From NCBI GenBank assembly GCA_963794945.1, contig CAWCFT010000016.1:32001-96000 (forward strand): 64,000 nucleotides of DNA. Reading direction: 5' to 3'. Position numbers and translations under genes: made by a program. The DNA is from Endomicrobiales bacterium. Lineage in GTDB: Bacteria; Elusimicrobiota; Endomicrobiia; Endomicrobiales; CAWCFT01. A model generated the notes under the pieces. It was not told the origin of the DNA and ran no database searches. It saw only the letters and a list, made by a program, of their open reading frames with translations. Positions 12,087 to 33,886 of the stretch are shown here, piece after piece; the stretch's first letter is position 1; each line of letters opens with the position of its first letter.

Positions 12087-13439
12087 CTACTGTGGCGGCT
12101 CCTGCGCTGGCTGAACCTGCTGACCCGGCTGCGGTTTGTCAGCAAAAGAAGTAGTGGCGGATGATTCAGCACCGGAACTATTTGGTGCGCCTGTTTGTAA
12201 GCCTTTCTTGAGCGCGTCTATTTCTGAATTCTTCTTTGCAATCTCAGAGTTTAGCCTGGACTTATCTTCTTCGCTTATGCCTTCCGCTTTAACAGACTGC
12301 TGTAGCTTGATTAATTCGGCTATTTTCTGCCCCATCTCAATTCCAGTCTTAGCCCCAGCCGGAATCTTAAACCCTGCCTGCTCTGCCTGATTAAGTTTAT
12401 CCATCATTTTGGCAGGATCAATAGGGGGTTGTATGTTACCAAGCGCGGCGGCCTTAGCTTTCAAGCCTGCCGCCTTCTTTAGCGCTCTTGCGGCATCTTT
12501 CTCAGCCTTGCTGACCGCATCTGCCAGCCTCTTAGCCTTGAGATTGGGTTTTGGCTTTGGCGTATTAGCCTTGGCCTGCTCTTCCTGCCACTTCAGGTAT
12601 GACTCCTTTGCGAACGCCAGAAAGTCATCAAGGTTGTTGATTTTCTTACTACAACCATTAAACTTCACCAACCCTTGGCCCGACTTGGAGAACTTTATGC
12701 CCTCAGCTATAGTTTTCTTGCCGAAAGAACCATCGCTGGCAGCAAATAGCTTCTTTATAGCTTCAGCTGGGTTAGGGTTTTTCAAGGCTTCTATAAGCTT
12801 ATCCCGCTTTTCAGGGTCTATTTGCAGTTTACTTGAGTCTCCGGCAGGGTGGGGGTCACCGGGTGACCCTACAGCCACATCATCCTTATCTTCTGAATCT
12901 TTATTAAGAAAATCTGCCGTTTTTTTAAGCGGCAATATTCCTTTCTTAGCCGCATCTTGAATTTCAGGCCCGCCAGCCTGTATCAATATATAACACCTGA
13001 CCATAACCCTGTTTACTTTAAGAGTGTCAGCTATTTCATATAAACTCATGCCCTCTTTATAATACTCTCCGCTGATTGAAAAGATTTCAAGCTCTTTAAG
13101 GCTGTTCTGCTCAACATTGTCCAAAACTGAAAGATGCCTACCCATCTTTATGGGGTCCGGCCCAAGGTCAGAAATGGGGATTACCTGCGCGTCAATTGTA
13201 TCTGCCCCCAGCCGCTTATTTGTCTCGCACCTGTGCGCCCCGCGCATAATAGCCAACTTTTTCCCGTTCTGCGGGTCTATCAGGGCAATCGCAGTTTGCT
13301 GGCCGAACTGCTTGAACGATTCCAACAGCCGCTTGACCACTTCCTCATTCAGCCCTGCCCTGCACTGGTATGTCTTATCATCCCAATCAATCGCGTCCAG
13401 CCGAACCTTCACAATCGGATACTTGCCCATGTCAAGCAT
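12087..13439 (-). CDS. ParB/Srx-like N-terminal domain + HTH protein with long K/A/P/Q-rich tail (paralogue 1)
   Basis: GQQTAI...RGAHR...DNVEQ (degenerate GxxR / ENxxR) followed by the HTH-like GMSLYEIADTLKVNRVMVRCY. SD AGGAGG precedes the ATG at 13439. Confidence 0.75.
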   Translation of the reverse strand: MLDMGKYPIVKVRLDAIDWDDKTYQCRAGLNEEVVKRLLESFKQFGQQTAIALIDPQNGKKLAIMRGAHRCETNKRLGADTIDAQVIPISDLGPDPIKMGRHLSVLDNVEQNSLKELEIFSISGEYYKEGMSLYEIADTLKVNRVMVRCYILIQAGGPEIQDAAKKGILPLKKTADFLNKDSEDKDDVAVGSPGDPHPAGDSSKLQIDPEKRDKLIEALKNPNPAEAIKKLFAASDGSFGKKTIAEGIKFSKSGQGLVKFNGCSKKINNLDDFLAFAKESYLKWQEEQAKANTPKPKPNLKAKRLADAVSKAEKDAARALKKAAGLKAKAAALGNIQPPIDPAKMMDKLNQAEQAGFKIPAGAKTGIEMGQKIAELIKLQQSVKAEGISEEDKSRLNSEIAKKNSEIDALKKGLQTGAPNSSGAESSATTSFADKPQPGQQVQPAQEPPQ

Positions 13440-13458
13440 AACACCCCTCCTGTTGCCT

Positions 13459-16185
13459 TTACTTATCAAACAATGGGAGTTCATCGTCACCAGTAAATTC
13501 TTCAAGCCCAAGTTCTTCATGCCTTAATTCATCAAAACTTTCAAAATCGTTTACACTCGAAATTTCTGTTGGACTAAAACCTTTCCTCTCCATTTCTTTA
13601 TCAACAAGAAAGAACGTTGTTATTCCACCTTCTTTTTCCAAAAGTTTTAGCGCTTTCTTTCGGTCATCAATTTGCTTTGACTCGGCAAGGTGCTTGCCTT
13701 TTACATCAACGATAAACCACTGGCCTTGAATGAAAGCAAGGAAATCAGGATAAAATGGTGCTTGCCTTACTTCCACAGGATATTCGATTCTCGGTTCATT
13801 TCGAATCCAAAAACTCTTTTTCTTTTTATCAATAACACATAAACGTTCCAACGCATCTGCAACTAATTTTTCTGGTGGACTATCAAATTTAACATATGGC
13901 TTAATAGCGTGTTGATATCCCTCAACAATAATACCTTTTTGTTGCTGATGCGGGACCATTTCTTGATATGATGGAATAAGATTTATTGCCTTTCCATCAC
14001 GTTTTCGGATGGTTACCTTGCCATCAAGAAAAATATCTTTAATATTCTTTTTCCTAATTGTAAATTTACTCTTAAACATCAAGTTAAAAGATTTTTTACT
14101 ATAAAAATCAATTATGCTCTTCTTCAATGCTTTAAGTGCTTTCTTGTAATCAAGCTTATAAGCCGTATCAACTTGAATGCCAGAATCAATGATTTTCTCA
14201 ATTATATTTTTTGCAGTTCCTATAGAATTATTTCCAATAAAATGGCCCGTATCTTCTATAAAATCCCACGCCCATCTTGATATTTCATCTTTTGTTAATG
14301 TTATTGTTCGACGAGTGGTAATTGGCCTTTCTTTTTGCAATTCAATTTCATCCGTTGTGATCTCTACGTAGTCAACTGCGGCCATTACTTCAGGCTTTAA
14401 CACCTTGTCACCATTCAGCACATGGCATACCTCGTCTATAAACGCTGCAATACTTAATGTCTTGTCTTTCAAGGCATCCTCAAAACTCTCCCCCGTAGCA
14501 ACAGGCTTGATCTGTAAAATCGGTATTTCGTAATTATCTATAATATCTTTATTGACTTTATTTAAGCGGTCTTCTTCTTCGGTTGGAATTTCGATGCTTG
14601 CCTGCGATAGATCAAGCTTTTCTCTTATTTCTTGCACGATTTTATCGAAACGACGCCCCCGCTCGCAAACTATATTCAATATTTCACTCTGTTCCTTCAA
14701 GTCATGTTCCAGAATATCATACTCTCTTTTTTCTTTATAAAGACGCAATCCTCTGCCTATAAGCTGTGCAGCGGCAAGCCCGACTTTCTCGACAGTATCC
14801 CCCAAAACAACAATGGTATAAAAATTGTCGTAGTCCACACCTTCTGTGAATATACGGACCTGATTGACAATTTCCACTTTACTATCTTCAAGCGATTGGT
14901 ACTCCGACCACGTTTCTTCTTCGCTCTTATTTTCGCTGTGAATAGTGAAAACAGAATTAGCAACTCGTTTTAATTTTTTAATTAACTCCGTTTTATTTTT
15001 AGGAATATTTTGTCTAATTATTTTTGCAATATCTGTACCTTCTCTATTCACTTGTTCTAATACATCATCAAGCTCTCCAGTAATAGTATCGGGCCAATTT
15101 TTGAGATAGACATCAATAAAGTCGGCGTGTTTAATCGAGCGGGCCTTGGTAAGCAACATTGATTTTTTAACCGGCGCGTTAACCGCCGCAAGCGCCTCAT
15201 ATTTTAATAGGTGAATCAACATACCCCATATTAATTTCTGCTTATCGGCATCTGTTACCTCGTCGGTTACTTTTTCATCGCTAGTTCCACAACCAACAGC
15301 AAATATTCTCTTTCCATAACCTTCATTAATATATCGCTGCATCGGATATTTGTATAGATTGTTTTGCCCAAAATCCCCACTTTTGATTTTTTCTATCGAA
15401 GTTGCGGTAAATTCCAGCACAACACTAGGCATTAATTCATAAATCGCTTCAGCCGTTTTCTTTTGCTGGTAGTGATGTGCTTCGTCAGAAATTATAACCG
15501 GCCGGCGTTCTCGCAAAAACTCAACAAATGATATGGTATGATTTCCACTTTTATCTCGCCAAACTGATTCTTCAAGTGGTCGTTTTACATAAGGAACACC
15601 TTTCATCGTGTCTTCTTCATCTTTTTGACCAGAAGTACCTTTATCATAAAATTTCTGCATATTAAAAACATAGAATGAAATGTCTTTATCATCCTCATAA
15701 TTGCAGGTTTTATCACGGTATGAATTGCCTGTCACCAAGTTATATGACAAGTTCCAGCCATCACCAAAAATGCTTTTTACCGCACGAGGCGTGAAATTTT
15801 CTATCGTTTTATCAAACAAAATAGTGTTTGGAGTTAAAATCAGAAAATCCTTTTGCCCCTTATGCCACAAATCTAAAATTGCCGCCCCCATAAGCAAAGT
15901 TTTTCCGGAACCAGTCGCCATTTCAAAACCTATCTTGTGCCATTGTACGGATTTACCTTCTTCATTTTTGCTTTCTTGCAAAGTTTTTTGTTTCAGGCTT
16001 CTGCTATCAAAAGCATCTTTGTCAAATAGCTGAAAAACACTCAACGCTTCCATCTGATAAGGACGCAGTGAATACTTTAGTAATTTCTGAATTTTATTAA
16101 AATTCTCAATCGTTTTAGGCGAAGCCATACCTTTTATAATTTTGTATTGTTGATCTTGGCTGACTAAATCGTAAAATGTTTTCAT
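13459..16185 (-). CDS. res: Type III restriction-modification Res subunit (SF2 helicase + PD-(D/E)xK nuclease)
   Basis: LRPYQ, EMATGSGKT, ISDEAHH, QLIGRGLRL and C-terminal FYPDF...VDVKG; overlaps the mod stop. Confidence 0.9.
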   Translation of the reverse strand: MKTFYDLVSQDQQYKIIKGMASPKTIENFNKIQKLLKYSLRPYQMEALSVFQLFDKDAFDSRSLKQKTLQESKNEEGKSVQWHKIGFEMATGSGKTLLMGAAILDLWHKGQKDFLILTPNTILFDKTIENFTPRAVKSIFGDGWNLSYNLVTGNSYRDKTCNYEDDKDISFYVFNMQKFYDKGTSGQKDEEDTMKGVPYVKRPLEESVWRDKSGNHTISFVEFLRERRPVIISDEAHHYQQKKTAEAIYELMPSVVLEFTATSIEKIKSGDFGQNNLYKYPMQRYINEGYGKRIFAVGCGTSDEKVTDEVTDADKQKLIWGMLIHLLKYEALAAVNAPVKKSMLLTKARSIKHADFIDVYLKNWPDTITGELDDVLEQVNREGTDIAKIIRQNIPKNKTELIKKLKRVANSVFTIHSENKSEEETWSEYQSLEDSKVEIVNQVRIFTEGVDYDNFYTIVVLGDTVEKVGLAAAQLIGRGLRLYKEKREYDILEHDLKEQSEILNIVCERGRRFDKIVQEIREKLDLSQASIEIPTEEEDRLNKVNKDIIDNYEIPILQIKPVATGESFEDALKDKTLSIAAFIDEVCHVLNGDKVLKPEVMAAVDYVEITTDEIELQKERPITTRRTITLTKDEISRWAWDFIEDTGHFIGNNSIGTAKNIIEKIIDSGIQVDTAYKLDYKKALKALKKSIIDFYSKKSFNLMFKSKFTIRKKNIKDIFLDGKVTIRKRDGKAINLIPSYQEMVPHQQQKGIIVEGYQHAIKPYVKFDSPPEKLVADALERLCVIDKKKKSFWIRNEPRIEYPVEVRQAPFYPDFLAFIQGQWFIVDVKGKHLAESKQIDDRKKALKLLEKEGGITTFFLVDKEMERKGFSPTEISSVNDFESFDELRHEELGLEEFTGDDELPLFDK

Positions 16186-17906
16186 AATAAATTGTATTCC
16201 TTTAGTATGGTGGATGGTATCTTCTTAATAAGCACCCGCTCATCAAGCACTTCCGATGGAACACCAACGGCGACGTTAGTAAAGATTGTTAAATGTTTAA
16301 ATTTCTCTCTTTCCAAGCCAGCAATAATTTTATCGTAGAGTTCTTCATTTAATGTAGCTATATCTCTCGAAGCAAAAGAGATCGCGAAATGATACCTTGC
16401 AGACTGATGTCTACCAAGATATACATTTTCTTTGTCGAGCCATTCGGATTTTTGTGGCCGGTATTGGAAATGCAAAAATATTGCCTCGGACATTTCCGCG
16501 GCTTTCAATTTCCAATTCATATCTTGACCGTTAATTAGACTCTCGCCGAGTTTGTAATATTTGAAACCACTACCACCTTCCCAATTAATATCTTTACTCA
16601 CCCCTGTTTGATCTTCTCCGTTTATCACTTTTTGCAAGCGGGGAACTATCAATTCTTCTGCTTGTCTACCCATTTCCACCATTAACCATTGTCGCCCCAT
16701 TTTATGAGCAACTGCACCAGTGGTTCCTGAACCAGCAAAAGAATCACAAACTATATCACCAACCTCTGTTGATAACTCTAGAACTCTTCTGATAAGTGGC
16801 TCTGGTTTCTTCCCATTTTTAAAAATGACTGCACCCTCTGAAGCAATACCTGTCCAAGAAATATTGGTCCAAACATCGGTAATCACCTCTCCAGGTACAG
16901 TATCGCCATTAATATTGATTAATCTTTTGTCATAAAAAAGTATTTGTTCGCCATTAAGTATGTAGAAGCCTTCAACGTCTTCATTAACATGAACAAACAC
17001 TTTTCCATTATTATTTTTAGATTTTTGAATAGTTGCCGCACGTTTTTTGGCAGCACCACCACCAATGGCGGCAGTACGAAATACTCGATCTGCATTTTTT
17101 ACAGCAAATTGAGATATTTCATAAAGAAAACTATTTCCTAATATTTGCTTTGCCTTTTTAGGATTCTCGTAACCTTGCAGCTTGGCGACAACATCAGCTA
17201 TGTTTTCCCACTGCCATTTTTTATAAGGCAAAGATTTGTCATTCAATACTTTGTTATAAGCAGAATCATAATCTTTCCGTATGTAAACCTTTTTTAACGG
17301 ATAACCTATTTTCTCTTTCGCATATACCAATAAGTAGTTGGCTGTAGAAAATATTTTTCCCCCTGTCGCTTTGAATCCTGATGGATCGTTAGTCGTAATA
17401 CAAATAGTATTGCAATAATTTTTTCTACCAAATATTTCGTCGAGTAAAATTTTAGCGTAGGCCATCTCTGCAGTATCAAGGTGCACAAATATCAAGCCAT
17501 CTGTTCTTAAAAGTTTCCTAAGTAAAAAAAGCCTATCTCTCATCATTGTCAACCATTCCGAGTGTTCAAGATTGTCATCGTATTTTTCAAATGCAGTGCC
17601 CGTGTTAAATGGCGGATCAATATAAATACATTTGACTTTATTTTTTTCTGGTTTTCCTTTAAACATTTCAACTAAACTTCTAAGAACCAAAAGATTATCC
17701 CCTTTTATGAGCATATTATTACTTGTTACATCACCATAGCTTTGTTCAAACCTTAAAATACGCGGCTCGGCAACTCGAATATCATTTTTTGGCACCCAAA
17801 CAGGACGGACGCCCTTTCCTTCTTTCTCATCTATTTCATAGAAGAGAGAAAGGTCTTTATTAATCCAGTCAAGCCTTAGTGAACCTTTGTAACTTTTATT
17901 TACCAC
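16182..17906 (-). CDS. mod: Type III R-M Mod subunit (amino-methyltransferase, beta class)
   Basis: IKGDNL, IYIDPPFNTG, WLTMMRDRL, GKKPEPLIRR, DSFAGSGTT and WEGGSGF. Confidence 0.92.
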   Translation of the reverse strand: MVNKSYKGSLRLDWINKDLSLFYEIDEKEGKGVRPVWVPKNDIRVAEPRILRFEQSYGDVTSNNMLIKGDNLLVLRSLVEMFKGKPEKNKVKCIYIDPPFNTGTAFEKYDDNLEHSEWLTMMRDRLFLLRKLLRTDGLIFVHLDTAEMAYAKILLDEIFGRKNYCNTICITTNDPSGFKATGGKIFSTANYLLVYAKEKIGYPLKKVYIRKDYDSAYNKVLNDKSLPYKKWQWENIADVVAKLQGYENPKKAKQILGNSFLYEISQFAVKNADRVFRTAAIGGGAAKKRAATIQKSKNNNGKVFVHVNEDVEGFYILNGEQILFYDKRLININGDTVPGEVITDVWTNISWTGIASEGAVIFKNGKKPEPLIRRVLELSTEVGDIVCDSFAGSGTTGAVAHKMGRQWLMVEMGRQAEELIVPRLQKVINGEDQTGVSKDINWEGGSGFKYYKLGESLINGQDMNWKLKAAEMSEAIFLHFQYRPQKSEWLDKENVYLGRHQSARYHFAISFASRDIATLNEELYDKIIAGLEREKFKHLTIFTNVAVGVPSEVLDERVLIKKIPSTILKEYNLL

Positions 17907-17977: not shown

Positions 17978-19162
17978 TCACAACAAAACTTCTTTCAGGA
18001 AACTCTTGCCGTTGTTCATTGGTTTTAAATCAAAGGCATCGGCTATTGTTTGGGCGACGTCCGCGAAAGTTTGTCTTATGCCAAGGTCAACACCGCTCTT
18101 CACATTTTTGCCGTAAACAAGCAGCGGCACGTATTCTCTAGTATGGTCCGTGTGTTTTTTGAATGTCGGGTCGCAGCCATGGTCGGCCGTGATAATTAAT
18201 ACATCGTCATCCCGGAGTTTGTCAAGAAGCTCTGGAAGCAAATCATCAAAATCTTTTAACCCTTTCGCATAAGACTTTACATCTCTTCTATGACCCCAGA
18301 GCATGTCAAAATCCACAAGGTTTGTAAATATCAGAGACTTTTTTATGTTGTCTTCCTTAGAAACAAGCCGCAGTGTGGCGTCAAAACACTCGCTGTTACC
18401 ATGGGCGCGAACGCTCGCCGTAATCCCAGCCTTGTTGAAAATATCCTCTATCTTTCCGACCGCCGTAACACTTCCCCCGGCTTCCTTTATCCTGTTGAGT
18501 ATCGTAGGCTTCGGCGGCGTCAGCGCGAAATCGCGCCGGTTCCCGGTCCTTGTGTATTGCCCATTCCCGCCTGTAAAAGGCCTGGCTATGACCCGTCCCA
18601 CGGCGTTTGGGCCTTTTAGCATCCCTCGTGCGTCAACGCATATTTTATAAAGTTTTTCGAGCCCAAACGACCCTTCGTGAGCCGCTATCTGGAAGACTGA
18701 ATCCGCCGATGTGTACACTATCGGATAACCTGTCCGCACATGCTCGTCTCCAAGCCTGTTGATTATCTCAGTGCCGGAAGCCGTAACGTTGCCCAGCATT
18801 TTCGTGCCTATCAGTGTTTCGAATTCAGAGATGACTTCTTTGGGGAATCCATTTGGGTATACAGGGAAAGGTTTGCTTAGCACGGTTCCGGCCATTTCCC
18901 AGTGGCCGGCTGTCGTGTCTTTTGCCGGAGAGGCGCACATCATTTTGCCGTATGCGCCATTTATATCGCCAGTTGTCTCGCGTTTACTAGTTAGCAGATT
19001 ATAAAGGCCTAGCCGCGCGAGGTTGGGCAGATCAAAACCTTTCCCCATGGCGTCAAGAACGTGGCCCAGAGTATCGCTGCCGGCATCGCCGTATTTATCA
19101 GCGTTTGGCAAAGCGCCGATCCCCACACTGTCCAAAACGATGATTATAAAACGGTTTATCAA
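17978..19162 (-). CDS. deoB: Phosphopentomutase
   Basis: [48 protein letters not shown] and DHTRE. Confidence 0.96.
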
Positions 19163-19176
19163 TGAGAATCCTCATT

Positions 19177-20849
19177 CTACTTAACGAACAGATCTATGAT
19201 CTTGAATTCCTTAACATTAACAAGCCCCTTATCGGTGAGTTTGATCTCGGGTATGACCGGAAGAGCAAGGAACGATAGCTGCATGAACGGGTCGGGTATA
19301 TGCACCCCCAGCTGTGAGCTTAGCTTAATTAGCAGATCGAGCGACCTCGCGACATGTTCCAGCGTTCTGATCGGACATCAGGCCCGCGGTCGGAAGAGGC
19401 GGCTCTGCCCAGTACCCTTGATCCGTTAGAAACAGCGAGCCCTCCGCCCATCTTTATGACCTCAACAACCGCCGTGAATATACTTTCATCATCTGCGCCT
19501 ACGGCTATTATATTATGCGAATCGTGCGCTACGGACGAAGCGATGGCCCCTTTCTTGAGGCCGAATCCCCTGACGAAGCCCTTTCCTATCTGCCCTGACG
19601 CGAGATGCCGTTCCACTACCACGAGCTTTAGTACGTCTCTTGAGGTATCGGAAACCGCTTTACCGTTGAGAGTTTTCACCGGAGCGGTTGACATTCTTGT
19701 AACTATCTGACCGGGCACAAGGTCTATAACATTTATCTCGCGGCCCTTGGCAGGTATGGAAAGGTCTTTTTGCTCCAGCCACTTTACGTTGACCGAACTT
19801 CTTATAGGTATTTTATGCGGTTTAATAGGCCTTACCGAAGAACCTTCTTTGGCGACAAGCTCACCCTTCTTGAATACCATCTCGACGTTAAAATCTTTCA
19901 GGTTGTCAATGACAGCTATATCGGCCTCATAGCCCGGCGCCACCGCGCCAAGGTTCTTAAGGCCAAAACACTCGGCCGGATTTAGTGTTACGGCCCTTAC
20001 GGCATCGACTACAGGCACACCCCACCTGATAGCCTTTCTCACGAGGATATCGAGATGGCCCTTGAGCAGATCGTTAGGGTGCGTATCGTCAGTAACAAAT
20101 ATTATTCTGCGGTTATTGGCTGTACTGCAGAGCGGAAGGAGGTCGATGAGGTTCTTTGTCGCACTACCCTCCCTCATCATAATATACATGCCTTTGCGGA
20201 GTTTTTCCTTCGCCTCGGCCAGGTTGGTGCTCTCGTGTTCTGAGGCTATGCCGCTCGCGATATAAAAATCGAGGTCTTTGCCCTTTAGGCCCGGCGCATG
20301 GCCGTCCACATGTTTTGAGCTGGCCATACTTATCTTCTGCAATACATCTGGGTCAGAAGAGAGCACCCCCGGGAAATTCATCATCTCGCCAAGCCCCACG
20401 ACCCAGTGGCCGCTTAGGAACGGGTAGAGGTCGAAAGAAGAAAGCCGGGCTCCTGAAGTTTCAAGGATAGACGACGGTACGCAGGATGGAAGCGTAAGAA
20501 AAAGGTTTATCGGCTGGTACTTCGCGGACTCCAGCATCCACTTGATGCCATCCAGGCCCAGGACATTCGCGATCTCGTGCGGGTCGGCGACTACGGATGT
20601 GGTGCCCGATTTTGATACAGCTCTCGCGAATTCTGATACCCCCACGAGCGAGCTCTCTATGTGAATGTGCCCCTCGATGAACCCGGGAGTTATATACTTT
20701 CCGCTTATGTTGATCCGTTTCTTAGCCGGGTATTCTCCAAGGCCAACGATCTTTTCGCCCTGGATAGCCACGCTCTCAGGATATATCTCCCCGGAGAAAA
20801 CGTTTATTAGTTTTCCACCGGTAAGCAGGATATCAACGGTTTGTTTCAT
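19177..20849 (-). CDS. ade: Adenine deaminase (frameshifts near 19370-19410)
   Basis: HIHIESS, DPHEIANV, GEMMN, DGHAP and SVAHDSHN. The shifted frame supplies GLMSD and PFMQLSFLALPVIPEIKLTDKGL to a stop at 19177. Confidence 0.93.
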
Positions 20850-20850
20850 T

Positions 20851-21804
20851 TTATCTCTTTTTACGTTTAAGTACTTTTTCGGCTGCGGACACGATATCAA
20901 CATCCTTTAGGTGATAGAGTTTCATAAGGTCAGACGGTGATCCGGATTCGCCGAAGACATCATTTATTCCGACCATCTCAACCGGAACGGGGCACTTCTT
21001 GACCAGCACTTCGCTTACCGCGGAACCGAATCCGCCAAAAAGCTGGTGCTCTTCGGCCGTGACTATCGCGCCGCACTGCTCGGCCGCCTCGGTTATGGTT
21101 TTTTCATCTATGGGTTTGACCGTGTGAAGGTTAATTACCCTAGCTGAAACACCTGATTTTTCCAAAATTTCAGCCGCCATTAGAGCTTCGTAGACCATTG
21201 CTCCGCAGGCAATTATCGCAACGTCCTTGCCGCCCTTTAACACCTCGGCTCTTCCGATCTCGAAAGGAGAATCGGCTTTTGTATGCATAGGGACATTCTC
21301 TCTTCCGAACCTTATGAAAACTGGCCCATTTATCGCGGCGGAAGCTATAGTCGCTTTCTTGGTCTCTTCGTAGTCGCAAGGAACTATAACGGTCATGTTC
21401 GGCAGGCAGCGCATTATAGAGATCTCCTCAAGCGCCTGGTGCGTGGCCCCGTCCGGGCCTACCAGCACTCCGGCGTGAGATCCGCCTATCTTGACATTGA
21501 GGTTAGAGTAGCAGACGGTGTTCCGTATCTGTTCCCACGGGCGGCCTGCTGCGAACATGGAATATGTGGAAGCGTATGGTATCCAACCCGCGACGGCAAG
21601 CCCCGCGGCCATGCCTATGAGGTTTTGTTCAGCGACTCCTACATTAGCAAACCGCTCCGGGAATCTCTCTTGGAACATATTGATCGCGACCGACGAAGCC
21701 GTGTCTGCTCCCAGAACGAATATCTTAGAATTTTTCTCCCCTAGCGCCACAAGCCCTTCGCCGAAACCGTAGCGCGTAGCCTTCTTTCCAAAAACTTCTA
21801 CCAT
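20851..21804 (-). CDS. Transketolase, C-terminal (pyrimidine-binding) subunit
   Basis: NVGVAEQN, GPDGATHQALE and AEEH motifs. Confidence 0.93.
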   Translation of the reverse strand: MVEVFGKKATRYGFGEGLVALGEKNSKIFVLGADTASSVAINMFQERFPERFANVGVAEQNLIGMAAGLAVAGWIPYASTYSMFAAGRPWEQIRNTVCYSNLNVKIGGSHAGVLVGPDGATHQALEEISIMRCLPNMTVIVPCDYEETKKATIASAAINGPVFIRFGRENVPMHTKADSPFEIGRAEVLKGGKDVAIIACGAMVYEALMAAEILEKSGVSARVINLHTVKPIDEKTITEAAEQCGAIVTAEEHQLFGGFGSAVSEVLVKKCPVPVEMVGINDVFGESGSPSDLMKLYHLKDVDIVSAAEKVLKRKKR

Positions 21805-21878
21805 GATTTTATTCCTTTCAATCAAATATCAAATACCAAAGGTTAAAATTTTTGATTTTTGATTCTTGATTATTGAAT

Positions 21879-22700
21879 TTACCTGCTAACTGCCAACTCT
21901 TTTAGTGCTAATTCTAACTGCTCTTTATTTGGCGCCTTGCCGTGCCAGTCGGCGCTGTTTTCCATAAAAGATACGCCTTTGCCTTTTATTGTATGAGCGA
22001 TTATGGCCGTTGGCTTTCCTTTGGTATTGCGGGCTGTCTCAAACGCGCCTATGACCTCGTTCAAATCATGTCCGTTTATCTCGAGCGTGTTCCAGCCGAA
22101 CGAGCGGTATTTTTCGGAGATGGGTTCAATGTTCATTACTTCGCCGACTTTCCCATCGATCTGCAGTCCGTTCAAGTCTACTATGCCGCAGAGATTGTCG
22201 AGCTTGAAATGGCCAGCCGACATAGCTGCTTCCCATATAGAACCTTCCTGCTGCTCGCCATCCCCCATAAGAACGTATACGCGATTGGGCTTATTCTCTC
22301 TCTTATGCCCGAGCGCGGCCCCGACGCCTATAGATAATCCGTACCCGAGCGACCCTGTAGAAACCTCAATGCCCGGTACATTCTTGTCTTTTGACGGGTG
22401 GCCCTGCGGCCGGCTGCCGGTTTTACGCAGGGTGCATAGTTCGGACGACTCGATGCAATGCAACTGTGCCAGAACGGCGTAAAGTACTGGGCACGCGTGG
22501 CCTTTTGAAAGTATAAAATAATCTCTGCAGGGATCCTGCGGTTTATTTGAGGAAAAATTCATTTCCTTGAAATACAGCGCGACCACTATCTCTACCGCTG
22601 AAAGACTTCCGCCCGGGTGCCCTGAGCCTGCCTGAGCTATCATAGTGATAATGTCTTTTCTTACGTTTAATGCGATCTCCTTCAGTTGCTCTGTCTCCAC
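21879..22700 (-). CDS. Transketolase, N-terminal (TPP-binding) subunit
   Basis: GHPGGSLS, LSKGH, STGSLG and GDGE...N TPP motif. Confidence 0.93.
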   Translation of the reverse strand: METEQLKEIALNVRKDIITMIAQAGSGHPGGSLSAVEIVVALYFKEMNFSSNKPQDPCRDYFILSKGHACPVLYAVLAQLHCIESSELCTLRKTGSRPQGHPSKDKNVPGIEVSTGSLGYGLSIGVGAALGHKRENKPNRVYVLMGDGEQQEGSIWEAAMSAGHFKLDNLCGIVDLNGLQIDGKVGEVMNIEPISEKYRSFGWNTLEINGHDLNEVIGAFETARNTKGKPTAIIAHTIKGKGVSFMENSADWHGKAPNKEQLELALKELAVSR

Positions 22701-25700: not shown

Positions 25701-25816
25701 AAATATCTTGTGAGGAGCGATTGTATGTAAAGATAACCACAGCAGGCGAAAACCGCGTTTATAAGCACCAGGATGAGCGCCACGTAGGCAATATATTTAA
25801 ATATCAGCTTCTTCAT
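22750..25816 (-). CDS. Membrane-anchored sensor histidine kinase with three GAF domains (frameshift near 25380)
   Basis: ORF 25328..25816 has a TM and periplasmic part. ORF 22750..25365 has three GAF-like repeats (VPL...GVL...F), SHELRTPL, NSIKFT, DTGIG and GTGLGL. Confidence 0.9.
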
Positions 25817-27669
25817 TATAATTTGTGTTTCAAAAGCGTTATATCGAGAGCGAGGTTAAGGTATCTGTAGTCCTTGTTGAGCTCGGCCCAAGGAACAAGC
25901 TGAAGCGAGACCTTTTCGTCGTCCATGACCGTGGATAACAGGTTCGCAAAATCCTCGGCGTCCATTGCTGATTCCAGAGGCGGACCAAGAACTATCGCTA
26001 TCCCAACGTTGTTCGTCTTGCAAAGTTCAGTAAAGAACTGGTAGTTTATCTTCCCAGTGAACGCGTAGGCGCGCTCGAATATGCCTTCCAGCCTGAATTT
26101 CAGTTTATGCTTTTTTATAACATCGCGGAAGCGGTCTTTGATCTTTACAAGTTCCTCGTCTTTGCCCTCCGGATAGAAGAAAGCAACATCAACACTCTTC
26201 AGATTTGCCTCTGACGGGTCCCTCACCTGAGGAGCGGTGGGTTTTGGCGCGGCGGGTTTGGACTGCTGTATAACGATCAATGGCTCTGGCTCGGATTTTG
26301 CTGCGATGCGGGCTGGTTCCTGGCGCAGTGGCTCTGCAATAACGGGCGCAACAGGAGGCGTAGGCTCTTGCGCCGGCTCAGCAACAGGTATATTCATTTC
26401 AACAACTGGAGGCTGGTATACGGCTTGGGCTTTCTGGGCCGGAAACTGAGGCATAGCCAACTCTTCGGATTCTTCCACCGGAAGCAGGTCCGCCATAAGA
26501 CTGTGGACCAGCTCCATGTCCACATCCTGGTGAGTTAGCGCAGCGTACGCATTTATCCTTTTTAGGAAGCCTTCCAGTTCCCTGATATTGGATTTGAGCT
26601 TTGAGGCGATGTAGAGCAGGATATTATCGTTAAGCCTTAGCTTTTCAACTTCTTCCTTTTTCTTGAGTATCGCGACCCTCGTCTCGAGATTCGGCGATTT
26701 TATATCGGCTATCAGGCCCCATTCGAAACGTGACCGGAGCCTGTCCTCGAGAGTTGTCAGGTGTTTTGGCGGCCTGTCGGAAGTTATTATTATCTGCTTT
26801 CCACTCTGATGAAGCACGTTGAATGTATGGAAGAATTCTTCCTGCGTGGATTCAGACTCAACTAGGAACTGTATGTCGTCAACAAGCAGGAGGTCAATGT
26901 TGCGGTAGTGGTCGCGCATACGCTGAAGCTGGCCCGAACGTATGGAGTCTATAACCTCGCCCATAAATTTCTCGGTAGTAACATAGAGCACTCTCGACGC
27001 AGGGTTTTTCTTTCTCACGTAATGGCCAACGGCATTCATCATGTGGGTCTCGCCGAGGCCCACTCCGCCGTAAATAAAGAAAGGATTGTATATCTTGCCT
27101 GGGTTGTCAGCTACCGCCTGTGTGGTGGCGGTAAAGCGGTTATTGGGCCCGATAACGAATTCTTCGAAAGTGTACCTTGGGTTGAGCTCGAGGTCCAGAA
27201 ACCCTTCGTGCCCGTCCGACCCGGAGTATACTATCCTTTCCTGAGCCGGGTTGGCTGCCAAGGGCTGCGCCGCCAGCGCCGCTTCCCTGATCTTTGGCTC
27301 TGCTGCGTTCTCATGAAGTTTCTTTATTTCGGCGGTTTCCTGGTCAGCGGTAACGCTGCTCATGCTTCTGGCGACTTTTTCCAGGGCCGAATCAAGCTCG
27401 TTGTCTTTTGACGGGCCTTCGATTATGCCGTCCGCGCATTTATTCTTGAGGTCGACCGCCAGTTTTTTAATGGATTCTTCATTAGCATCGTAGATATACA
27501 AGCCAAAATCGTAGTCGTCTTTTTCCAGCAGGAAAGGCCTGCCTACGGTGCCAGGGATTGTATTTATCAGCGACATCAGCTCGCGTTCATCTATCTTAAG
27601 TCTCAAGAGCCATCTGTTCTTATCTTTTTCAGTTGGCGTTAAAGAAAGTTTCCATCTAGTTAGGCTCAT
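25816..27669 (-). CDS. DnaA-like AAA+ protein lacking the DnaA domain IV, with novel N- and C-terminal domains
   Basis: LNPRYTFEEFVIG, YNPFFIYGGVGLGETH, LLVDDIQF, QEEFFHTFN, DRLRSRFEWGL and NIRELEG, then a Pro-rich linker. No RDHTTV-type HTH is present. Confidence 0.85.
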   Translation of the reverse strand: MSLTRWKLSLTPTEKDKNRWLLRLKIDERELMSLINTIPGTVGRPFLLEKDDYDFGLYIYDANEESIKKLAVDLKNKCADGIIEGPSKDNELDSALEKVARSMSSVTADQETAEIKKLHENAAEPKIREAALAAQPLAANPAQERIVYSGSDGHEGFLDLELNPRYTFEEFVIGPNNRFTATTQAVADNPGKIYNPFFIYGGVGLGETHMMNAVGHYVRKKNPASRVLYVTTEKFMGEVIDSIRSGQLQRMRDHYRNIDLLLVDDIQFLVESESTQEEFFHTFNVLHQSGKQIIITSDRPPKHLTTLEDRLRSRFEWGLIADIKSPNLETRVAILKKKEEVEKLRLNDNILLYIASKLKSNIRELEGFLKRINAYAALTHQDVDMELVHSLMADLLPVEESEELAMPQFPAQKAQAVYQPPVVEMNIPVAEPAQEPTPPVAPVIAEPLRQEPARIAAKSEPEPLIVIQQSKPAAPKPTAPQVRDPSEANLKSVDVAFFYPEGKDEELVKIKDRFRDVIKKHKLKFRLEGIFERAYAFTGKINYQFFTELCKTNNVGIAIVLGPPLESAMDAEDFANLLSTVMDDEKVSLQLVPWAELNKDYRYLNLALDITLLKHKL

Positions 27670-27734: not shown

Positions 27735-28810
27735 TTATTCAGCTGAGTTTATGCCTTTTAAATTGAGTGTCATATCATCCGGGTTCGTCGCCTTATCCAG
27801 CGCTTCTTCGACGGTAATCGTACCATTTTTGAACATGTTCAGCAGGTCGGCATCAAAAGTATGCATGCCGTAATACCCGCCCTGGTCTATGGCCTTGTAA
27901 ACCTCACCGAACTTGCCTTCAGCTATAAGTTTTTTTACTAAAGATGTGCCCATAAGTATCTTGGTCGCGGGCAGACGGCCCTGTCCATCCTTCTGTGTGA
28001 CTAGCCTCTGGGCAACTATACCCTTTACAACATTTGCAAACTGCGAGCGCACGGATGCCTGCTGGTGCGGAGGGTAGGAATCCACTATCCTGTCTATCGT
28101 TTGCGACGCATCCATTGTGTGGATAGTAGAAAGCACAAGATGACCGGTCTCAGCGGCCGTTATAGCGGAGGATATAGCTTCAAAGTCCCGCATCTCGCCT
28201 ATAACAACTACGTCCGGGTCCTGTTCTGAGCGCGTATTTGAGCGCGCGCGCGTAGGATTTTGTGTCGAGCCCGACTTCCCTCTGCGAGATGGACGACTTT
28301 TTGTCCTTGTGATAGTATTCTATTTGGGTCTTCAACAGTAACTATGTTGTAGCAGAAATTTTCGTTAATGTAATCGAGTATTGAGTTCATTGTCGTAGTC
28401 TTGCCGGCCCCGGTAACGCCTGTGATAAGGATGAGCCCGCGCTGGTCAGAAGCGAGTTTCTTAAGCGGTTCAGCAGGAAGGTTGAGCTCTTCAAAAGTCT
28501 TTACCTTGAGCGGCACAACCCTTAACGTCAGAGCTGTTGTTCCTCTCTGCCTGTAAACGTTTATCCTGAACCTTGAGATCTCATCAATGGAATGTGCGAA
28601 ATCGAGTTCGAGATCCGAATCGAAGGCTTTTCTCTGTTCGGGGCTCATCAGCGAATCTGCAAGTTCTTCAATGTTTTTGGCACTGAACGCATCTAGCCCC
28701 GCTGTTGTGAGTTTGCCGTTAAGGCGCAGTAGCGGCGCTGACCCACTTTTGAAATGGATATCGGATATACCTTTCTTTACCATAAGTTGAAGCAGTTCAT
28801 TTACGTTCAT
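27735..28810 (-). CDS. pilT: PilT/PilU family type IV pilus retraction ATPase (frameshifted around 28230-28320)
   Basis: [30 protein letters not shown], then [19 protein letters not shown] and GMHTFD. Confidence 0.88.
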
Positions 28811-29482
28811 TTTCTCTACCTCTGCATGCTTCCCTGGCTATCACTACCGAGTTCGATGTCCCGATCCTTGAGGCTCCGGCCTTGACCATACTCAAAAGAT
28901 CACGAAGGCTCTTGATGCCTCCGGCGGCTTTTACTCCCATCGAACTTCCCACCGTTTCGCGCATAAGCCTTACATCCGAGGCTTTCGCTCCTCCTCCAGA
29001 AAACCCCGTTGAGGTTTTAACAAAATCCGCTCCTGCACTTTTCGCTGCAAGGCACGCCTTCACTTTTTCTTTTCTAGAAAGAAGGCTGGCTTCAATTATT
29101 ACCTTGAGCGTTTTGCCGCCGACGGATGACCTCACCTTTCTTATTTCATCAAGAACAAGTTCATAGTTGCCTGACTTTAGGGCCCCGATGTTAACGACCA
29201 TGTCTATTTCATCGGCGCCGTTCGAGACCGCCTCTCCGGCTTCAAAAGCCTTTGCATCAGCGGTTGAGGCGCCCAGCGGAAAACCAGCCACGGAACATAT
29301 TTTGACACCGGAACCTTTTAACAGGCCGGCGCTATACTTGACGTTGGCGGGATTTACGCAGACCGAGTGGAACCCGTATCTCCTGGCCTCGCGTGAAAAG
29401 CTTCCGTAAGTTCTGCCCGGCCGGCGCCGGGCTTGAGCAACGTGTGGTCAATGAGCTTGGCGGCGCCAGATATGTTTTTCAT
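28797..29482 (-). CDS. deoC: Deoxyribose-phosphate aldolase (frameshift near 29400)
   Basis: Upstream frame [47 protein letters not shown] and RIGTS. Confidence 0.93.
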
Positions 29483-29493
29483 TTCAAATTTAC

Positions 29494-29961
29494 TTATTTC
29501 TTTTGAGCCAGACCGCATATCCTGTTCTCTATCTCAGATATGTTCGATACCCGTTTCCTGTGCCTTTCTTCTGTGCTCGCGGGGGTCCTAAGCCAGGTGT
29601 CTATGAACCCGATGAGCCCGTCAGTAGTGGCGAACCTGCCGGGAAGACAGATTATGTTGGCGTCATTGTGCTGGGAAATAAGTTTTGCGATGTCATTATT
29701 CCAACACACCGCAGCCCGTACACCAGGGAATTTATTAGCGGTGATAGACATGCCTATTCCCGTCCCGCAGATGAGCACTCCTTTATCATACAGCCTTTTA
29801 GAAACACCCTCGGCTACAGCAGCGGCGAATTCGGTATAGTCACAGCTAGCGTTCCAGCACGATCCCATATCGGCAACTGTGTGACCGAGCCCGTGAAGAA
29901 AATCCAGCACTTTTTCCCTGTGCTCGAAACCGGCGTGGTCGCAGCCGAAAGCTATTTTCAT
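29494..29961 (-). CDS. rpiB: Ribose-5-phosphate isomerase B
   Basis: DHAG, CGTGIG, ANK, HNDAN and RHRKRV. Confidence 0.95.
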   Translation of the reverse strand: MKIAFGCDHAGFEHREKVLDFLHGLGHTVADMGSCWNASCDYTEFAAAVAEGVSKRLYDKGVLICGTGIGMSITANKFPGVRAAVCWNNDIAKLISQHNDANIICLPGRFATTDGLIGFIDTWLRTPASTEERHRKRVSNISEIENRICGLAQKK

Positions 29962-30000
29962 TTCCTCTCTCCAAATCTTATCTTCCCGTAAGAAACGGGA

Positions 30001-30381
30001 TCAATTGTATTTTTTGTTAATGAAGCCGTCCTGCTCTGCCCTCAGCTTCATGATGAATTCGCCAAGCTCGGCGCGTTCGTTTGTGCCGAGGTCTACGAAC
30101 TGGGCTCCGTAGATCGATTCGTTCTGGTTATTTCCCTTGTTTTCCATGTGACAGATCTTTGCCACACATTTAAGCTTCATTCCATTAGGGAGCGTCACAT
30201 CTAGGCCTATATCATCGCCTATGCTGAATTCCGGGCTGCAGATGAACTTCACTCCGCCAAGTGATACATCAACGACTTTGCCCACCAGCACGAGCAGTAT
30301 GCCCGAGACCAGCCTAACCTGCCCGCCTGGAAGGAAAATACGGATGTGTTTACGCCGCTCCTCGCCTTTCAACATGGACAT
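30001..30381 (-). CDS. PilZ domain protein
   Basis: RRKHIR and DVSLGG c-di-GMP-binding motifs. Confidence 0.85.
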   Translation of the reverse strand: MSMLKGEERRKHIRIFLPGGQVRLVSGILLVLVGKVVDVSLGGVKFICSPEFSIGDDIGLDVTLPNGMKLKCVAKICHMENKGNNQNESIYGAQFVDLGTNERAELGEFIMKLRAEQDGFINKKYN

Positions 30382-30392
30382 TTCACCTCGGA

Positions 30393-30977
30393 TCAGAGAA
30401 TAATTGCCTTGTCACCGTTCTTTAGTCCTGCCGCATTCGCTTCGTCTATATCCACATGGCATTCCAGCGACATTTTTTCACTGACGCGCGCCACAACATT
30501 CTCAAATATAAGCCCGCGCTCGCCGGAACATTTTATGCTTAGGAGGTCGCCGTCTTTAATCTTGTAGAACGACGCGTCAACAGGGGTCATGTGTATGTGC
30601 CGCTTGGCCACGATACACCCTTCTTTGAGGTCTACCGACCCCGCGGGCCCGGTTATCTTTACAGGAGATGAACCGGAGATGTCGCCCGACCCTCTCACCG
30701 GCGCCTTAAGCCCTGTTTTTACGGCGTCACCGATAGATATCTCCACCTGCGTGAACTTGCGAAGCGGTCCGAGCACCCTTACCTTGTCTATCTCACCCTT
30801 AGGCCCTGATATTTTGACCGTTTCATTGCAGGCGTGCTCGCCCGGCTGCACGAGGTCTTTGATCTTTGTCAGTTTGTACCCTTTGCCAAAAAGGCTTTCC
30901 ATGTCCTTCTCACAAAGATGGATGTGCCGGTTGGACGAGTTGACCGTTACCGGCCTTTCTGCTCTTGAGTTTTCCAA
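30393..30977 (-). CDS. pduL: Phosphate propanoyltransferase (PduL-type phosphotransacylase)
   Basis: SNRHIHL, RVLGP, TQVEIS, AKRHIHM and HVDIDEANA. Confidence 0.93.
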   Translation of the reverse strand: MENSRAERPVTVNSSNRHIHLCEKDMESLFGKGYKLTKIKDLVQPGEHACNETVKISGPKGEIDKVRVLGPLRKFTQVEISIGDAVKTGLKAPVRGSGDISGSSPVKITGPAGSVDLKEGCIVAKRHIHMTPVDASFYKIKDGDLLSIKCSGERGLIFENVVARVSEKMSLECHVDIDEANAAGLKNGDKAIIL

Positions 30978-31035
30978 TTTATGTTCCTTTCACTCCGACT
31001 AATTATTTTTAATTGAACGTCATGAATTCAGGATA

Positions 31036-31791
31036 TCAATACTTGACCAGTTTTGTGAACGATTCTATCTCCAGGCTCGCACCGCCCACCAGCGCTCCGT
31101 CAACGTTTGGCTGTTTCATTATCTCGGCCACGTTGTCGGGTTTTACAGATCCGCCGTACAATATCCTTATGCTCTTGGCAGCCGTTTCGCCGTACATCTG
31201 AGAATAGAGTTTGCGTATATACGCGTGAACCTCTTCCGCCTGCTGAGGCGACGCGGTTTTGCCGGTCCCTATAGCCCATACCGGCTCGTAAGCTATGACC
31301 AGCGTCTTCGCCTGGTCCGGCGTTAGGCCAGCAATACCGTCCTTTATCTGTTTCTCCAGCACTGTAAAAGTAGTGCCGCCTTCTCTCTCGGCCAACATCT
31401 CTCCTACGCAGACTATCGGCACAAGCCCCGCCGCGAACGCGGCTTTCATGCGCTTGTTGACAGTCTGGTCGGTCTCGGAAAAATACTGGCGTCTTTCCGA
31501 GTGCCCGACAATGGCGTATTTGCATCCAGTGTCAACTATCATAGACGGGGCAACCTCTCCCGTAAATGCTCCCTTCGTTTCCCAAAAAATGTTCTGTGAC
31601 CCGACCGAAATATTAGAGCCTTTGAGCGCCTGCGCCACGGCATAAAGCGCCGTAAAAGGCGGGCACACGAGTATCTCCCTGTCGTTGATACCGGCAAGGT
31701 TCTTCTTGAGGCCCTCAACAAGTGTCAGTGCCTCCGGGATGGTTTTGAACAACTTCCAGTTTCCAGCGATGAGCGGTTTTCTGTCAGCCAA
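31036..31791 (-). CDS. tpiA: Triosephosphate isomerase
   Basis: AGNWK, GHSERR, AYEPVWAIGTG, YGGSV and LVGGASL. Confidence 0.97.
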   Translation of the reverse strand: MADRKPLIAGNWKLFKTIPEALTLVEGLKKNLAGINDREILVCPPFTALYAVAQALKGSNISVGSQNIFWETKGAFTGEVAPSMIVDTGCKYAIVGHSERRQYFSETDQTVNKRMKAAFAAGLVPIVCVGEMLAEREGGTTFTVLEKQIKDGIAGLTPDQAKTLVIAYEPVWAIGTGKTASPQQAEEVHAYIRKLYSQMYGETAAKSIRILYGGSVKPDNVAEIMKQPNVDGALVGGASLEIESFTKLVKY

Positions 31792-31836
31792 AGTAGTACT
31801 CCTTTCGATAAAATATGATGTGTAAATACGCTAATA

Positions 31837-31865
31837 AATATAGCAGTTTTTGAATGATTAATCAA
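31837..31865 (-). promoter_or_regulatory. Sigma70-type promoter upstream of tpiA
   Basis: Minus strand TTGATT-17-TATATT with TG extended -10. Confidence 0.5.
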
Positions 31866-32002
31866 GTGAGATTTAGGCTGGGTTTCAGTAATTATTTATT
31901 GGTTAGAGGCCGGCATGAATATGGAGTTTTTAAATGAGTGTTTTCCAATAATTTGGTTTATCCCTAGATGAACTTTCTGTTGATCCCGGGGCGGGGAGAC
32001 CT

Positions 32003-32512
32003 TCAGAACCTCTCGAACCTGTCTTTTTTGGCCTTGCAGATCGGGCATATTTCGGGTGGTGTTTCACGAGCGCAGAGGTAACCGCAGACTTTGCAGCGCC
32101 AAACGGGTATGCTTGTTTTGGGGAACGCGCTTACGGCCGTGTCGGCTTTGGCAACCAGCCTTTTTCCGGGAGGCGGCCTTCTTTCAGGTATGGGCTTTAT
32201 TTGGACCTCTCCTTTTACTGCGGCCCTTGAAACATAAAGAGCGCAATAGCAGGCATTGAACTCCACCAAATCCTGGTCACGATAATCACATGGGCATATA
32301 ATATCCAAATCTTCGGATTTGTTGCCGGTCGAAAGGCGGCACGGGCAGGACTGGTAGCCGTAACGGGCCGTATTCACCAGCAGGCCTTTGACAAGGTCTT
32401 TTGCAAAATATTCGTCAGGATTTAGATGGTACCCGGCGCCTTCGGCTTCCACTTTCAGCTTCACGTAAAAACTGTCGATAGCTTCAGCGGTAATGTCAGG
32501 GGATGTTTCCAT
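32003..32512 (-). CDS. Ferredoxin:thioredoxin reductase catalytic-type protein with C-terminal rubredoxin domain
   Basis: CPC, CPC and CYC motifs plus WRCKVCGY...CPIC. Confidence 0.9.
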
Positions 32513-32790
32513 TATTTTAACCTTTTGTTGAGCTCATCGGGATTAAAACCTATCACGCAGCTCGAATTGTCAAAAACGATTGTTGGAAATGATACAGACG
32601 GGTTCCACTTTTCAATTTCTTTTTCGGCCTTGTCGCGGTCTTCCTCTGAGAGTTGGTCAATATTAGCATATTGATAGTCCACTCCAAGCTCGTTGAGCAT
32701 CTTCTTTGTCTTGTTGCACCAAACGCAGGTGCTCAAAGCGTAGAGCATGATCTTGCCTTTCTTCTTGCCTTCAACGTGTTCTATCTTCAT
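32512..32790 (-). CDS. Glutaredoxin-like protein
   Basis: CVWC active site, SFPTIV and IGF; coupled to the FTR-like gene. Confidence 0.88.
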
Positions 32791-32881
32791 TGGGCCTCCG
32801 AAAAAACAATTAAAGATTGTAAAATTCAGGATTTAAAGATTAAGGGTGTTAATTTTCAATCTTTAATTTTTAATTACAAGT

Positions 32882-33886
32882 TTATTCCGCGCCAAGCAGC
32901 GTCACGGCCGTGATATTGTATATGTCTTCCGCCGTACAGCCGCGGCTGAGGTCGCTGAAAGGTTTTCCCACACCCTGAAGTACCGGGCCGAGAGCTTTGA
33001 ACCCCGCGAACCTTTCGGTTAGTTTGTAAGCTATGTTGCCGGAATTCAGGTCGGGAAATATGAATATGTTCGCCTTGCCTTCCAACGGCGAATCGGGCGA
33101 CTTTCTCTTGGATATCTCGGGCACAACCGCCGCGTCGAACTGCATCTCGCCGTCGATCTTGACCGCGGGGTCGGCCAAGAAAAACTCCTTAGTCAATTCA
33201 ACGGCTTCCCTGATCTTATTAAGGTTGATGTGCTGCGCGCTTCCTTTGGTTGAAAAAGAAAGGAACGCTGCCCTCGCTGTCTCTGCGGGAAACAGCCTCT
33301 TGAACGTCTTTATAGTTTCCACCGCGATGTCCTTTAAAGCAAGCGCCCCGGGTGCCGGGTTAACCGCGCAATCCGCGTAAAGGAGCGGCATGGTTATCGG
33401 GTGCTTATCCGGAGGTATCATTAAAAAAAATGACGATATAAGTTTTACGTCTGGCGACGTACCAACGCACTGCAGCGCCGCCCTCAGGACATCCGCCGTG
33501 TCGGACCGCGCACCTGCTATACATGTGTCGGCTTTGCCGCTTTCCAAAAACAGCGCCGCAAAATGCAGCGGCTCAATGACTAGGTATTCCGCCTCTTCCC
33601 TTGAAGCTCCTTTGTCTATCCTGGACTGGATGAAATCTTCGAGAACGTCTTTTCTCAAATGGTCAGGGGATGGCTCTAACATTGTAAGCCAGGAGAGGTC
33701 AAGGCTCTTTCGTTTCGCGGTTTCTTCAATGAAGGCTTTCTTTTTAGCCACGACATAGGCCTTGCAGATGCCTTCCTTGGCAAGCCTCACAGCCGCTTCA
33801 AGCGTGCGTTCCTCATCGCCTTCCGCGAACACCGCGGCGGCGCTTTTGGCTTTCGCGGTATCGATTATTTTTTTTAGTATATCCAT
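32882..33886 (-). CDS. pta: Phosphate acetyltransferase
   Basis: FAEG, ADCAVNP, LSFSTKGSA, DGEMQFDAA, FPDLNSGNIAYK and DLSRGC. Confidence 0.93.
   Translation of the reverse strand: MDILKKIIDTAKAKSAAAVFAEGDEERTLEAAVRLAKEGICKAYVVAKKKAFIEETAKRKSLDLSWLTMLEPSPDHLRKDVLEDFIQSRIDKGASREEAEYLVIEPLHFAALFLESGKADTCIAGARSDTADVLRAALQCVGTSPDVKLISSFFLMIPPDKHPITMPLLYADCAVNPAPGALALKDIAVETIKTFKRLFPAETARAAFLSFSTKGSAQHINLNKIREAVELTKEFFLADPAVKIDGEMQFDAAVVPEISKRKSPDSPLEGKANIFIFPDLNSGNIAYKLTERFAGFKALGPVLQGVGKPFSDLSRGCTAEDIYNITAVTLLGAE

Follow-up and report, generated by a model that had tools for sequence, protein, structure and literature searches.

A DnaA-derived ATPase with an Argonaute MID-like C-terminal domain in Elusimicrobiota

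The gene described here lies in a stretch of 64,000 nucleotides from an Endomicrobiales bacterium of the phylum Elusimicrobiota (contig CAWCFT010000016.1, positions 32,001 to 96,000; in the following the window, to which all coordinates refer unless a locus is named). It encodes a protein of 617 amino acids (aa) in which the ATPase core of the replication initiator DnaA stands between end domains that are foreign to DnaA. We use G000 for the source genome, P0001 for its 617-aa paralogue of DnaA, L022 and L023 for the loci of relatives and f-numbers for families within a sample of 301 genomes of the phylum. The gene and its parts are as follows.

25816..27669, minus strand: open reading frame of the DnaA-derived paralogue P0001, 617 aa, with N-domain, helix, linker, AAA+ core, linker and MID-like domain
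27355..27408, minus strand: conserved amphipathic acidic helix, aa 88–105; some of the AAA-less sister proteins have one like it (the motif was constructed by eye from the same proteins and is thus circular)
26479..27192, minus strand: DnaA domain III AAA+ core, aa 160–397, from Pfam and alignment, 56% identical to the genome's own DnaA
27049..27051, minus strand: Walker A codon, Glu in this assembly, whereas 146 of the 147 family rows have Lys
26854..26859, minus strand: Glu271-Ser272 where DnaA has Gly-Lys (equivalent of Bacillus subtilis K222, single-stranded DNA binding), from the family alignment
26203..26472, minus strand: Pro/Ala/Glu-rich linker, aa 400–489
25819..26202, minus strand: Argonaute MID-like domain, aa 490–617, from fold and profile, with a degenerate 5′-phosphate pocket and conserved KKHKLKF and YRYLNLALDI segments

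A preliminary description of the locus had proposed a DnaA domain III core flanked by ends unlike DnaA, and the searches agree with it: the Pfam family Bac_DnaA matches residues 162–321 of P0001 with an E value of 2e-67, and the Pfam scan gave no hit to DnaA_N (PF11638, domain I) or DnaA_C (PF08299, domain IV) at E ≤ 0.1. With 349.9 bits P0001 passes the cut-off of the DnaA model TIGR00362 (343.9 bits) on its core alone, covering only model positions 33–345 of 437, which explains the database label 'DnaA' on its relatives. Elusimicrobiota genomes are thereby annotated with a false second dnaA that can mislead origin prediction and marker-gene trees. The N-terminal region is indeed unlike domain I; however, the stretch of about 150 aa described there resolves into a folded domain of 85 aa, the amphipathic helix and a second linker. 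The N-domain is a separate family that is also present in AAA-less proteins, and it is duplicated in one member of 922 aa (L024:5628–8396). Behind the core follows, as described before, a Pro/Ala linker, in which Pro accounts for 19 and Ala for 15 of the 90 aa and whose counterparts in 131 relatives range from 13 to 253 aa between AAA+ and C-domain. In eleven members (P0138, P0139, P0144, P0153, P0154, P0160, P0165, P0176, P0179, P0181 and P0182) this linker holds one or two Cys4 zinc-ribbon-like inserts, and linker expansion brings one member to 1624 aa (L095:7398–12272).

In place of domain IV stands the anticipated β/α domain of about 130 aa, for which structure prediction gave a confident α/β fold (predicted local distance difference test score 93.6) that is MID-like and not helix-turn-helix. 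This C-domain is related to the MID domain with which Argonaute proteins anchor their guide, and it has the MID fold without the canonical pocket. Using hhalign, its alignment with one short prokaryotic Argonaute (short pAgo) family of 120 scored 40.3 with a probability of 83%, compared to at most 23.7 for 30 column shuffles, 13.0 for the reversed profile and at most 18.3 for eight other families. The pocket of Argonaute MID domains is given as YKQK or HKQK in PMC12908457. A Y/H-K-Q-K pocket for the 5′-phosphate was not found in the paralogue family, where the position of the stacking aromatic residue (575) is variable, the first Lys (579), present in 120/120 short pAgos, is replaced by S/T/A/G/Q, the Gln (590) is kept in 153/231 rows and the last Lys position (613) is hydrophobic with K/R one residue further at 614 (101/109); these positions follow the profile register, which for the last Lys was set by eye. 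A PIWI domain is also missing, as P0001 ends at the MID-like helix, G000 gave no Piwi match and only 2/301 genomes of the phylum have one. A complex prediction with two copies of the C-domain (score 0.00, mark 0.42) was used neither for nor against any reading.

A MID-like domain outside the Argonaute context bears on the origin of MID and on its function without PIWI. It may have kept a ligand: the C-domain could bind a nucleotide, a sugar phosphate or a DNA or RNA end, either in the remodelled pocket or on the basic KKHKLKF patch, and thereby switch the ATPase in order to control DNA uptake and nucleoside catabolism. The homology to MID by fold and profile, the frequent pocket Gln and the basic residue at 614 speak for such a sensor, which we nevertheless regard as doubtful in view of the replaced first Lys, the variable aromatic position, the hydrophobic last Lys position and the lack of PIWI. 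Independent of this, one of the two Piwi matches in the phylum is a short pAgo near the SIR2-associated type (L054:1033–2430, minus strand, G223:C6; 8in8, E 1.7e-123) with an upstream partner reading frame. Two C-domain proteins stand alone without an adjacent ATPase gene, namely L102:8533–9237 (G083), where pilT is followed only by a helix-linker-C protein, and L110:7137–7898 (G281), a further copy at another site whose N-terminus is hydrophobic.

To see how widespread this architecture is we collected 110 proteins with the C-domain alone as query and 95 by a profile search of 1.84 billion representatives. The 194 distinct proteins comprise 144 with AAA+ plus C-domain, four with N- plus C-domain and 46 with only the C-domain (fragments or sister proteins), and none of them has a domain IV motif. 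The same fusion thus recurs in more than 100 proteins, contrary to the misassembly that had been named as a possible refutation. Almost all source names are Elusimicrobiota. A single Ignavibacteria bin, a single Caldiserica bin (P0186) and a few records named only 'bacterium' depart from this, possibly due to misbinning, which is likely for the Ignavibacteria-labelled locus L027 (JBGFRZ010000084.1) because it shows the gene order of Elusimicrobiota. Within the phylum sample the C-domain profile matches 192/301 genomes, including 88/88 in family f20 and 191/211 outside family f10 (G000 not counted), and 0/89 in f10, which is probably Endomicrobiaceae; the profile under-counts, as it missed genome G157 in which the gene is present. 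Four f30 genomes gave only canonical DnaA and DnaC/IstB-like hits. The gene is wholly absent from the searched f10, f30 and f31 genomes and is therefore dispensable.

A canonical DnaA is found in every paralogue-bearing genome we read where the assembly allows, and the one expected elsewhere in G000 is located on contig C18 (461 aa with domain IV) beside rnpA-yidC-jag-mnmE-like genes, named from their sequences. Two DnaA boxes lie just upstream of this dnaA, which is 350 bp from the contig end, and the E. coli DnaN query had no match in G000 at E ≤ 1e-4. As reported before, no cluster of DnaA boxes accompanies the paralogue: the closest perfect ones in the window lie at 36859 and 6552, none within 9 kb. 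A quick tree was computed from 82 rows, namely 29 canonical DnaAs, 11 divergent rows and 42 paralogues left after thinning at 72% identity. In it the canonical DnaAs all group in one clade apart from the paralogues, with a Shimodaira–Hasegawa-like approximate likelihood ratio test (SH-aLRT) support of 99, showing that the paralogue did not arise by recent copying of the DnaA of this phylum. As the tree is unrooted, includes seven outgroup DnaAs and has long branches, we claim neither a donor nor an order of events. The core evolves faster than DnaA: in two matched pairs of genomes its identity is 79% and 69%, that of DnaA 92% and 90%. These data are best read as an ancient duplicate of DnaA, spread through the phylum and kept by most Elusimicrobiota. 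With no helix-turn-helix, a second and canonical dnaA and a recurrent fusion, the earlier idea of a non-initiator is well supported, and P0001 is almost certainly a non-initiator with a MID-like tail. Searches of open-access listings and of the opening lines of abstracts gave no description of this family or its domain combination.

For a closer look at the ATPase core, 147 family rows were aligned with 29 canonical DnaAs, using B. subtilis numbering through the Priestia DnaA. The family keeps the Walker A Lys (146 rows), the Walker B aspartates (146 and 147), sensor I (144), the Arg finger (145) and sensor II (146), and also the equivalents of B. subtilis I190 and T225 (as I and T/S). In contrast, the K222 position, K or R in 29/29 canonical DnaAs, is Ser in 127, Ala in 14 and Gly in two family rows and is usually preceded by Glu (104 rows). 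B. subtilis DnaA K222S is reported to retain ATP binding and oligomerisation but to separate strands in 25% of events versus 65% for the parent (bioRxiv 10.1101/2022.03.18.484894). Thus, with its ATPase and oligomerisation residues kept and the K222 equivalent replaced, the paralogue family looks assembly-competent and DNA-blind, and it has by nature the Lys-to-Ser exchange by which, in B. subtilis, the assembly of DnaA is separated from unwinding.

The same residues would also be compatible with co-oligomerisation with the true DnaA. The paralogue might join its filaments through the AAA+ interface and cap or poison origin unwinding, or donate its Arg finger in the manner of Hda, with the end domains tying this to pilus or kinase signals. 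Such a modulator could explain why the interface is kept (R260 equivalent in 117 of the 147 rows, R264 in 145, L269 in 145, R313 in 146, and R/K at R321 in 146), why the natural K222S matches an assembly-competent, unwinding-poor variant, and why a canonical DnaA accompanies the paralogue in every genome read where the assembly allows. However, self-assembly explains the interface residues equally well, and paralogue and phylum DnaA differ near it (E. coli numbering: 283 R vs I, 290 L vs V/I, 295 K vs Q, 339 F vs S). Moreover, divergent members have lost sensors I and II, the gene lies away from the origin and is absent from 89/89 f10 genomes, and a conserved β-clamp-binding motif was not found, as the pattern for it gave 23 scattered hits in the 194 proteins, mostly inside an AAA+ strand and none in P0001. 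We consider a role in modulating replication unlikely.

The genes around P0001 all run in the same direction and form a block with it.

27735..28810, minus strand: pilT/pilU-family ATPase, locus-specific paralogue with two frameshifts here; its stop is 65 bp upstream of P0001
22750..25816, minus strand: three-GAF histidine kinase, its start overlapping the P0001 stop, with a frameshift near 25385
30001–30381, within the upstream cluster: PilZ gene
28797..33886, minus strand: upstream cluster of deoC, rpiB, pilZ, pduL, tpiA, two redox genes and pta
17978..22700, minus strand: downstream cluster of transketolase halves, adenine deaminase and a phosphopentomutase-like gene

The overlap with the kinase (TAATG at 25816), the distance to pilT and the nearby PilZ gene are all as previously described, to which we add the relationship to Argonaute MID, the AAA-less sister genes and the nucleoside-catabolism context. 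Among 32 named loci, counting only those with enough flanking DNA, the kinase is the next gene in 26/31 and pilT lies at most three genes upstream in 18/23, so that synteny agrees with the suggested link to signalling or pilus control; pilT adjacency and the stop-start overlap persist across several classes. One or two AAA-less sister genes with N-domain and/or helix, a long low-complexity linker and a diverged C-domain lie upstream in 16/26 loci. In several lineages the ATPase lacks the N-domain and the sister protein carries it, a distribution that hints at a complex. The block sits in a tpiA-pduL-rpiB-deoC ... tkt-deoB-pnp-pdp cluster, of which tpiA/deoC/rpiB are the most stable neighbours across the phylum. 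In the window this cluster is split between the deoB-like gene and purine nucleoside phosphorylase by an insert (12087–17906, minus strand) with a DNA methyltransferase, a helicase-like restriction subunit (type III-like) and a ParB-like gene, named from their sequences, which is absent there in L022 and L023. Most genomes outside f10 have two to six PilT/PilU paralogues, and G000 has five such loci. Downstream of the paralogue L093–L097, L100, L101 and L103 show a conserved run of lipoprotein genes (LPP20-like, FlgT_N-like, GNA1162-like, CsgG) with comM behind it; in f20, dprA-topA come next.

The copy in the window shows some apparent damage. Its Walker A reads GLGETH, with Glu for the otherwise conserved Lys, and one conserved codon is absent near residue 181 in an Ala run. 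Since the assembly is error-prone here, as seen from the frameshifts in both flanking genes, which are intact in L022 and L023, both peculiarities are most likely assembly errors. One could also read them, together with the three frameshifts, as signs of a decaying pseudogene or an assembly chimera. This is extremely improbable, as 144/194 retrieved proteins share the AAA+ plus C-domain architecture, none with a domain IV motif, and P0001 is 60% identical over its whole length to its counterparts in L022 and L023. At most, damage could concern this one strain's copy.

In the paralogue, both end domains with which DnaA contacts DNA and the helicase are replaced, and the residues for ATP binding, hydrolysis and filament contacts are kept. 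We favour a model in which ATP would drive DnaA-like self-assembly off DNA. The oligomer would then display many tethered N- and MID-like domains that serve as protein-binding modules and could gather the GAF kinase and the PilT paralogue from the same locus, together with the sister proteins. Pilus retraction might thereby follow the ATP state of the cell and the signals of the kinase, plausibly as DNA uptake that feeds the surrounding nucleoside-catabolism genes. The contacts with PilT paralogue, kinase and sisters are putative and proposed from synteny, and to this ATP-switched scaffold as a whole mechanism we assign a probability of roughly 40%.

Several observations weigh against it. In f20, where 88/88 genomes have the gene, neither pilT nor the kinase is adjacent in 5/5 loci read, and deoC-tpiA lies upstream in all five. 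The neighbouring PilT type was not found in 2/2 f20 genomes nor in G215. PilM (E ≤ 1e-10) occurs in 9/88 f20 genomes and in 35/89 f10 genomes without the gene, showing that pili and paralogue are not strictly co-inherited. Thirteen rows, two of them database proteins and the others from f20, f24, f27, f28 and f29, form a divergent branch; all 13 retain Walker A/B and nine have R/K at the Arg finger, yet sensor I and sensor II are lost in 13/13, so that filament formation is not universal. The Walker A of P0001 itself reads Glu, and the genes around it may belong to a conserved operon of housekeeping type.

The retention of the gene in all 88 of the small f20 genomes, with neither pilT nor kinase adjacent in the loci read, would fit a general spatial organiser, a pole marker or a hub for division or segregation, with incidental neighbours in a merely conserved operon. 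A folded domain, a long acidic/Pro-rich linker and a further folded domain with an amphipathic helix recall PopZ and FimV/HubP. Such a role appears quite improbable to us, as the overlap with the kinase and the pilT adjacency persist across several classes and the gene is dispensable. For the sensor discussed above, it is of interest that tpiA/deoC/rpiB remain where pilT and kinase are gone, and that in L103:13192–16310 and L112:1565–6596 BMC and EutN shell genes, aldehyde dehydrogenase, rpiB and deoC lie upstream of pilT. These loci resemble the sugar-phosphate (SPU) microcompartment locus described in PMC11585597. However, deoC is absent from families that have the C-domain (C-domain versus deoC: f25 5/5 vs 0/5, f21 2/2 vs 0/2, f13 2/3 vs 0/3) and present in 34/89 f10 genomes without it, which counts against a simple metabolic story. 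Co-inheritance singles out no partner, as PilM and deoC each break the pattern and PilT is near-universal outside f10 (210/211), and these contrasts rest on few independent events. Sensing and modulation might even be combined: a freed MID domain would sense incoming DNA ends or nucleotide breakdown products and control the entry of a DnaA-like subunit into filaments of the true DnaA, and the start of chromosome replication would be gated directly by DNA that pili take up as food or for transformation. This we regard as very unlikely.

Re-use of the DnaA ATPase is known from Hda, DnaC and IstB. Here, the ATPase of a replication initiator has been re-used with entirely new end domains and retained across most of a phylum. 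Canonical DnaA (TIGR00362; PF11638 + PF00308 + PF08299) shares its domain III (56% identity) with Walker A/B, sensors I and II, the Arg finger and the I190 and T225 equivalents; in contrast, the paralogue has neither domain I nor IV, mostly Ser at the K222 equivalent and no DnaA boxes or origin genes nearby. Hda/HdaA is likewise a DnaA-derived, non-initiator AAA+ protein without domain IV, and the paralogue also keeps the Arg finger. However, P0001 scores only 107.7 against the Hda cut-off of 194.8 (TIGR03420), has two extra folded domains and is much closer to DnaA than Hda is. The polar hubs PopZ and FimV/HubP, the latter linked with type IV pili, combine an amphipathic helix, a long acidic/Pro-rich linker and a terminal folded domain, but they lack an AAA+ core, and the likeness is one of architecture, with no homology seen. 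To the MID domains of Argonaute and Piwi proteins (MIWI 4p1z, Piwi 6kr6, hAGO2 3luc and short pAgos like 8in8) the C-domain is 8–19% identical, and it differs from them in its degenerate pocket and the lack of PIWI, PAZ and N domains. ApsB of the ApsAB antiplasmid system also has a MID-like domain, in a protein that PMC11096173 describes as without typical PIWI and PAZ. However, it acts in defence together with a helicase-nuclease and retains Y-K-Q-K. In the paralogue this motif has decayed, a DnaA ATPase takes the place of that partner, and vertical inheritance maintains the gene in a locus of housekeeping type.
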